Source of the DNA: Escherichia coli
GTDB lineage: Bacteria > Pseudomonadota > Gammaproteobacteria > Enterobacterales > Enterobacteriaceae
Direction: 5' to 3' (one strand)
Length of the DNA stretch: 64,000 bases
NCBI RefSeq assembly: GCF_016903815.1
Contig: NZ_CP069973.1
A program made the translations under genes and the position numbers. The notes below the pieces were generated by a model. The model saw nothing but the letters and a program-made list of their open reading frames with translations. It did not search any database and was not told the origin of the DNA. Shown here piece by piece: positions 2,650-64,000 of this stretch. Every line of letters starts with the position of its first letter. Within the stretch, counting starts at the first letter, position 1.

Positions 2650-4302
2650 TTAATGTCCCGCAGGGCAACTGGCGCAGCGGTGTTGCTGCTCAAACTGACT
2701 AAAGAAATTATTGCCTTTATCATCTACCAGGATGAATGCGGGCAGATTTTCCACTTCCATCATCCACACCGCTTCCATACCCAGCTCCGGGTATTCCAGG
2801 CAACGCAGACTTTTGACATATTCTTGCGCCAGTAACGCAGCTGCACCGCCAATACTACCCAGATTGAAGCCACCATGTTTGTGACAGGCATCGGTGACCT
2901 GCTGGCTGCGGTTACCTTTCGATAACATCACCAGACTGCCGCCAGCCGCCTGGAAGGTATCGACATAACCGTCCATTCGACCGCCCGTGGTTGGACCCAG
3001 TGAACCGCAGGCCATGTTCTCCGGTGTTTTCGCCGGGCCAGCGTAATAGACAATATGATGCTTCAGGTAATCCGGCATCGGTTCGCCGCTATCCAGCCGC
3101 GCTTTTATTTTGGCGTGGGCGATATCGCGCGCCACTACGATGGGACCATTTAACGACACGCGGGTGCCTACCGGTAATCTGGCGAGATCCTGCATCACGT
3201 CACGCAACGGACGGTTTAGATCCAGTTGTACATGTGGCGCGTGATTTTCTTCCCGCAGTGAGGCTGGAATATATTGCCCCGGATTGTGTTCGAGTTTTTC
3301 CAGCCAGATACCGTGCTTGTTAATTTTTGCTTTGATATTGCGATCGGCAGAACAGGAGAGCGCCATAGCTATCGGGCAAGAGCCACCGTGACGCGGCAGA
3401 CGAATGACGCGAATATCATGAGCGAAATATTTACCCCCAAATTGCGCACCAATACCAAATTGCTGACTGGCCTCGAGCAACACTTTTTCCAGCTCAATAT
3501 CACGGAATGCTTGTCCCTGCTCGTTTCCGCTGGTGGGCAAATTGTCGTAATATTTCGTTGAGGCCAGCTTGGCAACTTTTAAGGTTTGATCGGCTGAAAG
3601 CCCTCCGACGACAAAGGCGATGTGGTAAGGCGGGCAGGCAGCGGTGCCCAGCGATTTCATTTTTTCGATTAAAAATGCGGTCAGTTTTTCTGGTTGCAAT
3701 AAGGATTTGGTTTCCTGATAAAGTGCGGCTTTATTGGCGGAGCCGCCCCCTTTATTAACACAGAGAAAATGGTACTCATTACCAGCGACAGCGCTGATAT
3801 CAATCTGCGCCGGGAGATTGGTTTGCGTATTGACTTCGGTATACATATCCAGCGGCGCATTTTGTGAAAAGCGCAGATTATTTTCCTGGAAAGTACTGTA
3901 AATGCCTTTGCTTAAGGCTTCAGCGTCGTTACCTCCCGTCCATATCTGTTGCCCTTTACTGGCAACAATAGTTGCGGTGCCGGTATCCTGACAGTTGGGT
4001 AATATCCCTTTTGCTGAGACTTCAGCATTACGTAATAACTGCAACGCAACGTATTTATCATTACTACTGGCCTGCGGATCGTTAAGAATGCTGGCGACCT
4101 GTTGCAAATGAGCGGAACGTAAGAAAAAAGAGGCTTCATAAAATGCCTGCCGGGCAAGCAGCGTTAATGCTTCAGGAGCGATTTTTATCACTTCTTCGCC
4201 GTCTAATTCCGTTACTGTAATATGTTGATCGCTAATTAATGTATATTCTGTACCGTCTTTATTTTGTAGAAACGGTTCTTGCCAGATAAATGGTTTGGAC
4301 AT
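2650..4302 (-). CDS. fumD: Class I (Fe-S) fumarate hydratase family protein, predicted mesaconase/fumarase
   Basis: 550 aa, full-length FumA/FumB-like protein with conserved Cys ligands; sits in a methylaspartate-pathway operon where mesaconate hydration is the required step. The fumD name is from memory of the literature, not verified. Confidence 0.8.
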
Positions 4303-52467: not shown

Positions 52468-52507
52468 TTGTAAACCAAATTGAAAAGATTTAGGTTTACG
52501 AGTCTAC
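52468..52507. promoter_or_regulatory. bio operator (BirA binding site) between divergent bioA and bioBFCD
   Basis: ttgtaaaccaaattgaaaagatttaggtttacgagtctac, the 40-bp imperfect palindrome of bioO; one position (tacGag) differs from the K-12 sequence as I remember it. Confidence 0.85.
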
Positions 52508-54738: not shown

Positions 54739-55480
54739 TAAACAAGCCATTGCAGCGGCATTTGGTCGGGCAGCCGCGCACTATGAGCAACACGCAGAGT
54801 TACAGCGCCAGAGTGCTGACGTCTTACTGGCAATGCTCCCACAGCGTAAATACACCCACGTACTGGACGCGGGTTGTGGACCTGGCTGGATGAGCCGCCA
54901 TTGGAGAGAGCGTCACGCGCAGGTGACGGCGTTAGATCTCTCGCCGCCAATGCTTGTTCAGGCACGCCATAAAGATGCCGCAGACCATTATCTGGCGGGA
55001 GATATCGAATCCCTGCCGTTAGCGACTGCGACGTTCGATCTTGCATGGAGCAATCTCGCGGTGCAGTGGTGCGGTAATTTATCCACGGCACTTCGCGAGC
55101 TGTATCGGGTGGTGCGCCCCGGAGGCGTGGTCGCGTTTACCACGCTGGTGCAGGGATCGCTCCCTGAATTACATCAGGCGTGGCAGGCGGTGGACGAGCG
55201 CCCGCATGCTAATCGCTTTTTACCGCCAGATGAAATCGAACAGTCGCTGAACGGAGTGCATTATCAACATCATATTCAGCCCATCACGCTGTGGTTTGAT
55301 GATGCGCTCAGTGCTATGCGTTCGCTGAAAGGCATCGGTGCCACGCATCTTCATGAAGGGCGCTACCCACGAATATTAACGCGTTCGCAGTTGCAGCGAT
55401 TGCAACTGGCATGGCCGCAACAACAGGGGCGATATCCTCTGACGTATCATCTTTTTTTGGGAGTGATTGCTCGTGAGTAA
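54725..55480 (+). CDS. bioC: Malonyl-ACP O-methyltransferase
   Basis: [24 protein letters not shown]...; start trimmed from ORF 54686. Confidence 0.95.
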
Positions 55481-56150
55481 ACGTTATTTTGTCACCGGAA
55501 CGGATACCGAAGTGGGGAAAACTGTCGCCAGTTGTGCACTTTTACAAGCCGCGAAGGCAGCAGGTTATCGGACGGCAGGTTATAAACCGGTCGCCTCTGG
55601 CAGCGAAAAGACCCCGGAAGGCTTACGTAATAGTGACGCGCTGGCGTTACAGCGCAACAGCAGCCTGCAGCTGGATTACGCAACGGTAAATCCTTACACC
55701 TTCGCAGAACCCACTTCGCCGCACATCATCAGCGCACAAGAGGGCAGGCCGATAGAATCATTGGTAATGAGCGCCGGATTACGCGCGCTTGAACAACAGG
55801 CTGACTGGGTGTTAGTGGAAGGTGCTGGCGGCTGGTTTACGCCGCTTTCTGACACTTTCACTTTTGCAGATTGGGTAACACAGGAACAACTGCCGGTGAT
55901 ACTGGTAGTTGGTGTGAAACTCGGCTGTATTAATCACGCGATGTTGACGGCACAGGCAATACAACACGCCGGGCTGACTCTGGCGGGTTGGGTGGCGAAT
56001 GATGTCACGCCTCCGGGAAAACGTCACGCTGAATATATGACCACGCTCACCCGCATGATTCCCGCGCCGCTGCTGGGAGAGATCCCCTGGCTTGCAGAAA
56101 ATCCAGAAAATGCGGCAACCGGAAAGTACATAAACCTTGCCTTGTTGTAG
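55473..56150 (+). CDS. bioD: Dethiobiotin synthetase
   Basis: GTG start, then [17 protein letters not shown]-loop; overlaps the bioC stop. Confidence 0.95.
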
Positions 56151-56636
56151 CCATCCTGTATTTGGTTAAATTGCGAGCGAGATCGCGTCTTCGATTGACT
56201 GCAATTTAACCAATTAAATTCTAAAATAATCACGAAAAAAATTTTACTTCCGCATCATGCGATGTATGTGGGAATTGCCCAGGCGGCGGGGGATAGGGGC
56301 TGCAGACAGTTATCCACTATTCCTGTGGATAACCATGTGTATTAGAGTTAGAAAACACGAGGCAAGCGAGAGAATACGCGGCTTGCACGCGAATTGGCGT
56401 TAAAGACGGCTCAAAGAAATATCTTTTATTTTTTAACTGGTTAGATAATTGCAATGGCAGTCACTGAAGAGGCATCTCTTGCCATAAAACTGTCATCACT
56501 CATCTTGACAAATGTTAAAAAAGCCGTTGCTTTGGGGATAACCCGGTAAGGCCGGAGTTTTATCTCGTCACAGAGTAAATTTTGCTCATGATTGACAGCG
56601 GAGTTTACGCTGTAACAGAAATATTATGGTGAGGAA

Positions 56637-56652
56637 CTGTTTTTTTATCCAG
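56637..56652. promoter_or_regulatory. LexA box (SOS operator) in the uvrB promoter
   Basis: ctgtttttttatccag (CTGT-N8-ACAG family) overlapping a tataat -10 element, about 80 bp upstream of uvrB. Confidence 0.85.
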
Positions 56653-56728
56653 TATAATTTGTTGGCATAATTAAGTACGACGAGTAAAATTACATACCTG
56701 CCCGCCCAACTCCTTCAGGTAGCGACTC

Positions 56729-58750
56729 ATGAGTAAACCGTTCAAACTGAATTCCGCTTTTAAACCTTCTGGCGATCAGCCAGAGGCGATTCGACGTCTC
56801 GAAGAGGGGCTGGAAGATGGCCTGGCGCACCAGACGTTACTTGGCGTGACTGGCTCCGGGAAAACCTTCACCATTGCCAATGTCATTGCTGATCTTCAGC
56901 GCCCTACCATGGTACTTGCGCCCAACAAAACGCTGGCGGCCCAGTTGTATGGCGAAATGAAAGAGTTCTTCCCGGAAAACGCGGTGGAATATTTCGTCTC
57001 CTACTACGACTACTATCAGCCGGAAGCCTATGTACCGAGTTCCGACACCTTCATTGAGAAAGATGCCTCGGTTAACGAACATATTGAACAGATGCGTTTG
57101 TCCGCCACCAAAGCGATGCTGGAGCGGCGTGATGTGGTTGTGGTGGCGTCTGTTTCCGCGATTTATGGTCTGGGCGATCCTGATTTATATCTCAAGATGA
57201 TGCTCCATCTCACGGTCGGCATGATTATCGATCAGCGCGCGATCCTGCGCCGACTGGCGGAGCTGCAATACGCTCGTAATGATCAGGCATTCCAGCGTGG
57301 TACTTTCCGCGTTCGTGGTGAGGTGATTGATATCTTCCCGGCAGAATCGGATGACATTGCACTTCGCGTGGAGCTGTTTGACGAGGAAGTGGAACGATTG
57401 TCGTTATTTGACCCGCTCACCGGGCAGATTGTTTCCACTATTCCACGTTTTACCATCTACCCGAAAACGCACTACGTCACGCCGCGCGAGCGCATCGTAC
57501 AGGCGATGGAAGAGATCAAAGAAGAACTGGCCGCCAGACGCAAAGTGCTGTTGGAGAACAACAAGTTGCTTGAAGAGCAGCGGCTGACCCAGCGTACCCA
57601 GTTTGATCTGGAGATGATGAACGAGCTGGGCTACTGTTCCGGGATTGAGAACTACTCGCGCTTCCTCTCCGGTCGTGGACCGGGTGAGCCACCGCCGACG
57701 CTGTTTGATTACCTGCCTGCCGATGGGCTGCTGGTGGTCGATGAATCACACGTCACCATTCCGCAAATTGGCGGCATGTATCGCGGTGACCGGGCGCGTA
57801 AAGAGACGCTGGTGGAGTACGGCTTCCGCCTGCCATCAGCGCTGGATAACCGTCCGCTGAAATTTGAAGAGTTCGAAGCATTAGCGCCGCAAACCATCTA
57901 TGTTTCGGCGACGCCGGGTAATTACGAGCTGGAAAAATCCGGCGGCGATGTGGTGGATCAGGTGGTGCGTCCAACCGGATTGCTTGACCCGATAATTGAA
58001 GTGCGGCCGGTGGCGACACAGGTTGATGATCTTCTTTCGGAGATTCGTCAGCGAGCGGCAATTAACGAACGCGTACTGGTTACAACTCTGACCAAGCGAA
58101 TGGCGGAAGATCTCACGGAATATCTCGAAGAACACGGCGAGCGCGTGCGTTATCTTCACTCCGATATCGACACCGTCGAGCGTATGGAGATTATCCGCGA
58201 CTTGCGTCTGGGTGAGTTCGACGTGCTGGTAGGGATCAACTTACTGCGCGAAGGTCTGGATATGCCGGAAGTGTCGCTGGTGGCGATCCTCGACGCTGAC
58301 AAAGAAGGCTTCCTACGTTCCGAACGTTCGTTGATCCAGACTATTGGTCGTGCGGCGCGTAACGTTAACGGTAAAGCGATTCTCTACGGCGATAAGATCA
58401 CCCCGTCAATGGCGAAAGCGATTGGCGAAACCGAACGTCGTCGCGAGAAACAGCAGAAGTACAACGAGGAACACGGTATTACGCCGCAGGGCTTGAACAA
58501 GAAAGTGGTCGATATCCTGGCGCTGGGGCAGAACATTGCTAAAACCAAAGCGAAGGGCAGAGGAAAATCGCGACCGATTGTTGAGCCGGATAATGTGCCG
58601 ATGGATATGTCGCCGAAAGCGTTACAGCAGAAAATCCATGAACTGGAAGGGCTGATGATGCAACACGCGCAAAATCTGGAGTTCGAAGAAGCGGCGCAAA
58701 TTCGTGACCAGTTGCATCAGCTGCGTGAGTTGTTTATTGCCGCGTCGTGA
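56729..58750 (+). CDS. uvrB: Excinuclease ABC subunit B
   Basis: 673 aa, helicase motifs including GVTGSGKT. Confidence 0.98.
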
Positions 58751-58757
58751 CAAGATG

Positions 58758-58786
58758 ACGAAGCCGGAATATTCTTCCGGCTTCGT
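58758..58786. terminator. Bidirectional hairpin terminator between uvrB and ybhK
   Basis: acgaagccggaa-tatt-cttccggcttcgt. Confidence 0.7.
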
Positions 58787-58787
58787 G

Positions 58788-59756
<969 letters not shown>

Positions 59757-63684: not shown

Positions 63685-64000
63685 GCACAGAAAACCCCCA
63701 GCTAGGCTGGGGGTTCCGGAAAGCTTTCAGCTTTGAGCCAGTTATTAAAACCCCTTTTGATTTGTTAAAACACCTTGCGGTCTGGCAACTGCAAGTGTCA
63801 AACAAGAAATCAAAAGGGGGTCCCAATGGGGAACGAAAAGAGCTTAGCGCACACCCGATGGAACTGTAAATATCACATAGTTTTTGCGCCAAAATACCGA
63901 AGACAGGTGTTCTACAGAGAGAAGCGTAGAGCAATAGGCAGTATTTTGAGAAAGCTGTGTGAGTGGAAAAGCGTACGGATTCTGGAAGCTGAATGCTGTG
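63685..64000 (+). mobile_element. tnpA: IS200/IS605-family insertion sequence, left end plus 5' part of tnpA (continues beyond window end)
   Basis: Terminal hairpin aaaacccccagc-tagg-ctgggggtt at 63691-63715; a second inverted repeat (63751-63765 with 63803-63820) that would sequester the aaaggggg RBS; ORF from ATG 63826 translating MGNEKSLAHTRWNCKYHIVFAPKYRRQVFYREKRRAIGSILRKLCEWKSVRILEAEC, the conserved N-terminus of IS200 Y1 (HUH) transposases. Left boundary approximate. Confidence 0.8.

Follow-up and report, generated by a model that had tools for sequence, protein, structure and literature searches.

A perfect 13-bp inverted repeat in the 3' untranslated region (3' UTR) of Escherichia coli bioD is a real, non-random and hairpin-forming element that is specific to the genus Escherichia. 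Judging from its sequence and from that of its orthologues, the repeat most likely acts as RNA, and the reading that we tentatively put forward, with a probability of about 0.4, is that it folds into a hairpin protecting, or defining, the 3' end of the bioBFCD mRNA, one of the type without a U-tract that is known from Rho-dependent transcripts.

Position and Structure of the Repeat

The window analyzed here is a 64-kb stretch of E. coli DNA onto which the RefSeq annotation of an identical genome was mapped; bioD occupies positions 55473-56150 and uvrB starts at 56729. The two arms of the repeat (Table 1) are exact reverse complements over 13 bp with a 26-nt spacer between them, and the gap from the bioD stop codon to the repeat is 11 nt according to both the open reading frame (ORF) list and RefSeq. 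The earlier note on this DNA had described the perfect repeat, its coordinates, its spacer and its place after the bioD stop, all of which proved accurate in the sequence itself, with a repeat finder and with a script. The repeat finder also stretches the arms to 16 nt with one mismatch (56159-56174 and 56201-56216), and a strain alignment revealed an uninterrupted 16-bp stem in two E. coli strains, p11A and AVS0655. A first-order Markov shuffle of 64 kb holds on average 0.065 perfect inverted repeats whose arms are 13 bp or longer and whose spacer is 3–60 nt, and at least one appeared in only 11 of 200 shuffles; the real window has two. RNA folding, which had been suggested as a check, gave a stable structure for the 64-nt stretch, with a predicted energy of -20.9 kcal/mol and z = -4.6 with respect to shuffles.

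Table 1. Features of the bioD-uvrB intergenic region that are discussed in the text, in window coordinates.
Feature	Position	Strand	Basis and remarks
bioD stop codon TAG	56148-56150	+	ORF list; RefSeq CDS end at 56150
Extended hairpin (13-bp stem, U·U mismatch, two outer pairs)	56159-56216	+	Repeat finder, folds, strain alignment
Left arm TTGGTTAAATTGC, 5' half of the stem	56162-56174	+	Sequence, repeat finder, script; 4/13 columns variable in 11 Escherichia sequences
Degenerate CRP-like 22-mer AATTGCGAGCGAGATCGCGTCT	56169-56190	.	Ortholog of the strong CRP-like site found elsewhere
Loop GAGCGAGATCGCGTCTTCGATTGACT, 26 nt, GATC inside	56175-56200	+	Folds predict small inner helices; 15/26 columns variable
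Right arm GCAATTTAACCAA, 3' half of the stem	56201-56213	+	Sequence, repeat finder, script; 3/13 columns variable
AU-rich tract with C over G, candidate Rho-utilization region	56214-56260	+	Inferred from GC skew and the pattern of Dar and Sorek (2018)
DnaA box I TTATCCACT	56310-56318		Placed by sequence against published box descriptions
DnaA box II TGTGGATAA	56324-56332		Placed by sequence against published box descriptions
DnaA box III-like TGTGTATTA	56336-56344		Placed by sequence against published box descriptions

Familiar families and signals were also searched for at this position. An Rfam scan (E ≤ 10) returned only eukaryotic models at chance level (mir-7957, with 19.8 bits against a gathering threshold of 76, and SCARNA7). 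No sigma-70 promoter was called on either strand, and the TTGACT at 56195-56200 lacks a usable -10 element at 16–18 bp. A REP/BIME element, another dispersed repeat or a MITE was rejected, given the median of one place per genome and the lack of a flanking direct repeat around the arms; no additional copy of the arm motif was found above chance in the 64-kb window, and the repeat pattern had no match in viral contigs. The bioD repeat does share with REP/BIME elements its nature of extragenic palindrome in a 3' UTR, a class able to stabilize upstream mRNA, but REP elements are rich in GC and number in the hundreds, whereas the bioD repeat is AU-rich and found at one place per genome (two in a few).

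One further perfect 13-bp inverted repeat occurs in the window, CCCCTTTTGATTT ... AAATCAAAAGGGG at 63751-63819. It has a 43-nt spacer and just precedes an ORF starting MGNEKSLAHTRWNCKYHIVFAPKYR at about 63827; together they look like the left-end hairpin and the transposase start of an IS200-family element. A shorter perfect inverted repeat of 12 bp (ACGAAGCCGGAA-tattc-TTCCGGCTTCGT, 58758-58786) lies 8 nt past the uvrB stop, between uvrB and a convergent minus-strand ORF (58788-59756), and looks like a shared terminator hairpin.

Distribution and Origin of the Repeat

Of 5426 complete E. coli genomes, 5424 contain the 201 bases around the repeat; a 75-nt query over the element matched them at a median of one place per genome, with two places in a few genomes, at 92–100% identity. 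The region downstream of bioD was then compared in one genome each from 80 related species. The hairpin is kept in all six non-coli Escherichia lineages sampled (E. albertii, E. whittamii and four others), and the repeat was not found in the bioD-downstream regions of Citrobacter, Salmonella or Enterobacter in this sample. Citrobacter koseri, C. amalonaticus and C. sedlakii retain only AAATTGCGAGCAAGATCTCG, with no matching right arm; Salmonella carries a different GC hairpin (GCAGGATC-AGAC-GATCCTGC, then TGTTCT) soon after bioD; and most of the others, including Enterobacter, Klebsiella and Kosakonia, have a convergent gene immediately after bioD. Conservation across Enterobacteriaceae, which the earlier note had proposed as a check, thus failed in the strict sense, the repeat being limited to Escherichia. 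A covariance model of the hairpin, searched against 32 loci of other genera, recovered just weak sequence homologues in Citrobacter (E = 0.03–3) in which several pairs are broken, so the long stem is not conserved outside Escherichia.

It was also considered whether every lineage in which bioD is adjacent has a hairpin of its own at the homologous segment, and the picture is mixed, with no clear support. Intestinirhabdus, with bioD adjacent, has its own hairpin (z = -3.2), no significant hairpin was found in the homologous segment of C. koseri and C. amalonaticus (bioD adjacent) or of Salmonella, and a Kosakonia locus (L037) has a long hairpin at the homologous site (z = -3.5) although bioD is not adjacent there and the site is not a bio 3' UTR.

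A cross-genus alignment of 74 loci anchored on the DnaA boxes of DARS1 revealed a module of about 170 bp, upstream of DARS1, that is conserved throughout Enterobacteriaceae, with or without bioD as a neighbor. In many genera, Enterobacter, Klebsiella and Kosakonia among them, bioD and this module are separated by an ABC-transporter ATPase-like gene that is convergent with bioD; in locus L021 this gene is on the minus strand, at 3165 to about 3890, where its 3' end and that of bioD share about 37 nt. The gene is missing from Escherichia, Salmonella and Intestinirhabdus and from some Citrobacter. Within the module, a 22-mer with the consensus AAATGTGAGCAAGATCTCAC lies at a fixed distance of 141–142 bp from DnaA box I (4079-4100 in L021). 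In about 20 loci, from Enterobacter, Kosakonia, Phytobacter, Lelliottia, Silvania and Leclercia, the 22-mer has 9 of the 10 positions of the CRP core TGTGA-N6-TCACA, in the form AAATGTGA-N6-TCNCA; against the full CRP consensus AAATGTGA-N6-TCACATTT, Enterobacter, Kosakonia, Phytobacter, Silvania and others score 12–13 of 16. A core of 9/10 occurs once in the whole 64-kb window. CRP tolerates variation at the varying position of TCNCA. The inner palindrome of the site (GYGAG-N6-CTCRC) was therefore not read as a conserved RNA hairpin, because the varying position breaks the would-be pair and is tolerated by CRP, and the CRP-like reading is preferred. In the other genera the conserved blocks TTAGCTGATAA and AGCGATAAAAATTTTTT come after the CRP-like site. 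The DARS1 literature that was searched makes no mention of this upstream module or of its CRP-like site.

The E. coli ortholog of the 22-mer begins 6 nt before the end of the left arm and reaches 16 nt into the loop, and it scores 11/16 with a core of 7/10; the window has 24 positions with at least 11 and 184 with a core of at least 7. The left arm is homologous to the Citrobacter sequence ATGGTGAAAATGC, with 3 of 13 positions changed. The right arm, which corresponds in the alignment to a conserved block of the enterobacteria (GTTAGCTGAT), has 8 of 13 positions unlike those of Citrobacter. This unequal change indicates that the perfect pairing is an Escherichia innovation over a decaying older module, and on the strength of these alignments the repeat looks like the result of remodeling, in the Escherichia ancestor, of the conserved module upstream of DARS1. 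The perfect pairing could have come from selection for pairing or from a quasipalindrome template switch.

Constraint and Strand Bias within Escherichia

The arms are less variable than their surroundings. Among 11 Escherichia sequences, 7 of 26 arm columns are variable compared to 67 of 132 when the stop-repeat spacer, the next 95 nt and the loop are taken together (Fisher p = 0.021); by part, the variable columns are 11/11 in the post-stop spacer, 15/26 in the loop, 41/95 in the next 95 nt and 0/25 in DnaA boxes I and II of DARS1. The substitutions that did occur in the arms are biased toward pairing in the bioD-sense strand. An A to G change at position 7 (three lineages) and a C to U change at the partner of position 12 (two lineages) both yield a G·U pair on the + strand, and at position 13 several E. 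coli strains have U·G in place of C-G, which went on to U-A in strain Z1323HEC0300. Three arm changes break a pair, and three lineages carry unrepaired stem mismatches. All 12 orthologues fold on the + strand with predicted energies from -12.7 to -23.8 kcal/mol; the - strand reaches -12.4 vs -20.6 kcal/mol for the + strand in E. albertii and -7.9 vs -12.7 kcal/mol in MOD1-EC7003. Diverged relatives thus fold better on the bioD-sense strand, as a consequence of arm substitutions that are for the most part G·U-compatible or compensated on the + strand.

The numbers behind this bias are small (4 of 5 transitions preserve a pair, p = 0.19), and covariation among 12 Escherichia sequences did not differ significantly from shuffles (73/500 for percent paired and 65/500 for the covariation score) because sequence divergence is too low. 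With these few data points, the strand pattern favors an RNA made from the bioD-sense strand. The earlier note had offered an RNA element or a protein-binding site as alternatives; the first fits better since the substitutions of the relatives favor bioD-sense pairing, and the second found no support.

The same observations have to be weighed against a functionless quasipalindrome, in which an imperfect inverted repeat of the ancestral module upstream of DARS1 would have been perfected by intrastrand template switching and would simply persist in a young genus; we regard this as a possible, though somewhat unlikely, explanation. Intrastrand template switching during replication is a known mutational route by which one arm is corrected against the other. 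The unequal divergence from Citrobacter (8/13 positions in the right arm vs 3/13 in the left) looks as if one arm had been rewritten, and the confinement to one genus, the non-significant covariation, the unrepaired mismatches in three lineages and the lack of a 3' end at this position in the published tables searched (see below) all fit such a relic. Template switching would equally give one-sided corrections and the change from C-G to U-A. On the other hand, variation is lower in the arms than in the loop and flanks (p = 0.02), the tolerated changes show a sense-strand G·U bias that a DNA-level process would not prefer, and the repeat survives in 5424 of 5426 genomes and in six other Escherichia lineages while the 11-nt spacer after the stop varies at every column.

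A Candidate Stem-Loop at the 3' End of the bioBFCD mRNA

The position of the repeat fits an RNA role, as it is the 3' UTR of a co-directional operon. A canonical intrinsic terminator was rejected: with 4/13 G-C pairs, an AU-rich stem base and a 26-nt loop (as opposed to about 3–10 nt), the hairpin was not called by the terminator scan, which found no canonical terminator from bioD to DARS1, and the tail UUAAAUUC has 4/8 U and is broken by AAA. The bioD hairpin resembles a canonical terminator in lying right after the last gene of the operon and in having some U residues in the tail (UUAAAUUCU); it differs by lacking a GC-rich base, a short loop and an unbroken U-tract. Two statements of the earlier note are borne out here, namely that no T-run follows the repeat (the first 8 nt 3' of the stem, TTAAATTC, contain four T without a run, and the scan calls nothing) and that a stem with 4/13 G-C pairs, a 26-nt loop and no U-run is unlike a typical intrinsic terminator.

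Another class of 3' ends offers a closer likeness. In E. coli, the steady-state ends of Rho-dependent transcripts have been found just past stable stem-loops without a U-rich tail and with a mild excess of C over G downstream, and these ends are reached by PNPase and RNase II trimming (Dar and Sorek, 2018; PMC6061677). The bioD hairpin is like the members of that class in being stable, in lying just after a coding region and in having no U-rich tract. As for the downstream sequence, GC skew is -0.28 at 56180-56259 (31% GC) and -0.12 at 56200-56279, which leans toward C over G, but the sequence turns G-rich from about 56260. Unlike those stem-loops, whose stem and loop sizes are terminator-like, the bioD hairpin combines an AU-rich stem of 13 bp with a 26-nt loop that pairs partly with itself. 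By analogy, it is probably a member of this known class of U-tract-less 3' stem-loops.

If so, transcription of bioBFCD would produce a + strand RNA that folds into a long AU-rich stem-loop 11 nt past the bioD stop. Alone, this hairpin would not be an efficient terminator, and RNA polymerase would probably continue into the untranslated bioD-uvrB spacer, where transcripts might end diffusely, through Rho acting on the AU-rich tract with C over G downstream of the hairpin, or go onward to DARS1 and uvrB. The 3'-to-5' exonucleases PNPase and RNase II would then trim the transcripts back to the hairpin, which would leave a stable 3' end and protect the bioBFCD mRNA. We infer all three parts of this scheme: transcription of the repeat within the bio mRNA, the exonuclease block and the action of Rho downstream.

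Published 3'-end tables, a check also suggested earlier, list no end at the repeat, although their coverage is poor for such a weakly expressed locus. The Term-seq and bicyclomycin tables of Adams (2021) have no 3' end or Rho-dependent region at MG1655 8135xx-8140xx, and the TERMITe, TRS and SMRT-Cappable-seq tables have no 3' end for bioD or at MG1655 813590-813629; both negatives are weak, since expression of the bio operon is low and rich medium represses it, and since uvrB, too, does not appear by name in the curated 3'-end table of Adams. A literature search returned nothing on a bio operon terminator or a bioD-uvrB element.

The hairpin could instead act by itself as a weak intrinsic terminator of a non-canonical type, or as a pause hairpin, and partly insulate DARS1 and the uvrB promoters from bio read-through; we consider this improbable. 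It does sit where an operon terminator is expected, with no canonical one between bioD and DARS1; the tail has 4/8 U in E. coli and 5/8 (TTAAATTT) in E. whittamii, E1V33 and SCPM-O-B-8794; the GC hairpin of Salmonella also lies soon after bioD; and insulation would be biologically sensible with DARS1 and uvrBp3 96 bp downstream. However, the AU-rich base, the 26-nt loop and the U residues interrupted by AAA make hairpin-driven release unlikely by the usual criteria, long reads have led to the prediction of a bioBFCD-uvrB transcription unit, and the published tables searched hold no 3' end there.

The DARS1 Neighborhood and the ΔDARS1 Allele

The bioD-uvrB spacer houses DARS1 and three uvrB promoters, of which uvrBp3 overlaps the three DnaA boxes that compose DARS1 (Wurihan et al., 2018; PMC6015884). 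The boxes are invariant in all the Escherichia and other enterobacterial loci aligned, and the repeat ends 96 bp upstream of box I. The full ADP-releasing activity of DARS1 in vitro requires the three boxes and a 42-bp flank past the last one (Frimodt-Møller et al., 2015, PMC4585315, citing Fujimitsu, 2009). Additionally, a 70-bp DARS1 fragment that includes the core is active in an ADP-dissociation assay. Neither the required flank nor the 70-bp fragment takes in the upstream repeat, and the repeat was rejected as a part of DARS1 in view of its 96-bp distance from the boxes and of the mapping of published activity to the boxes and the opposite flank.

Several other features were observed around DARS1. 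Between the hairpin and the DnaA boxes, a 16-nt block (GGGAATTGCCCAGGC, 56269-56285) is invariant in 11 Escherichia sequences and mostly kept in other genera as GGGAATTTGCC. In the long untranslated leader from uvrBp3 to uvrBp1/p2, the segment 56505-56565 holds a TTGACA (at 56505), then a GC hairpin (CCGGTAAGGCCGG) and AGTTTTATCT (56543-56565) that the scan flags as terminator-like; the T-rich tail is invariant in Escherichia and the stem is variable. Further downstream of DARS1 lie a LexA box (AACTGTTTTTTTATCCAGTA, 56637-56654) and the uvrB P1 promoter (TTGGCA-17-TAAAAT, 56662-56690).

The proximity of DARS1 raises the question of a double-stranded DNA site, either a CRP remnant or a site for Fis/H-NS or an unknown dimer, that would form a regulatory flank of DARS1 and uvrBp3 comparable to that of DARS2. 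Such a site is quite doubtful. The region is homologous to a module of near-fixed spacing that has a strong CRP-like site 141–142 bp from box I, the arms are AT-rich and symmetric, and the common ΔDARS1 allele removes the repeat together with DARS1, so that any contribution of the repeat is hidden in that of DARS1. Against this, the E. coli CRP-like 22-mer is no better than background (11/16, core 7/10), the 39 bp between arm centers are unusual for a dimer, the arm changes of the relatives break DNA symmetry and keep RNA pairing, the arm motif has no copy above chance elsewhere in the window, and published DARS1 activity needs the boxes and the far flank, not the upstream repeat. The protein-binding site proposed in the earlier note finds no support either: the arm motif is no more frequent in the window than expected by chance, the CRP-like 22-mer, the one recognizable remnant of a protein site, is not built by the arms, and the arrangement is unlike a BirA operator. 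The arms match 8 of 11 positions of BirA half-sites around AACCAA, but everted and at 26-bp spacing, and the real bioO of the window, at about 52468-52503, has TTGTAAACC-type half-sites that face inward 16 bp apart. The resemblance to the regulatory flank of DARS2, with its IHF and Fis regions, lies in a non-coding module that is conserved and keeps a set distance to the DnaA-box core of a DARS; unlike the DARS2 flank, no protein is known or confidently predicted to bind the E. coli repeat, and the activity of DARS1 maps elsewhere. That the repeat would be a working part of the DARS1 regulatory flank, its hairpin gating the bio read-through that reaches DARS1, appears very improbable.

The primers used for ΔDARS1::cat (Frimodt-Møller et al., 2015; PMC4585315) have homology arms that map to 56127-56161 and 56604-56643, so the allele removes the equivalent of 56162-56603, that is, the hairpin, DARS1, uvrBp3 and about 260 bp more, and the deletion starts at the first base of the left arm. 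According to a DnaA-titration study of 2025, the ΔDARS1::cat allele used there came from earlier mutant strains.

Concluding Remarks

If the preferred reading is right and the hairpin defines the 3' end of bioBFCD, it would fill a small gap, the E. coli operon having no canonical terminator between bioD and DARS1, and would provide a lineage-specific example of U-tract-less protective stem-loops. Two by-products of the analysis are more interesting than the hairpin itself, namely the CRP-like module upstream of DARS1 and the loss of the hairpin in the ΔDARS1 allele. In strains that carry the commonly used ΔDARS1::cat allele of 2015, any effect on bio mRNA or on read-through would be confounded with the loss of DARS1. 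Should the repeat belong after all to a regulatory flank of DARS1, part of the published ΔDARS1 phenotypes would be due to the loss of this upstream element, and the CRP-like module would tune DnaA reactivation or uvrBp3, so that biotin or carbon status would be coupled to the initiation of replication.
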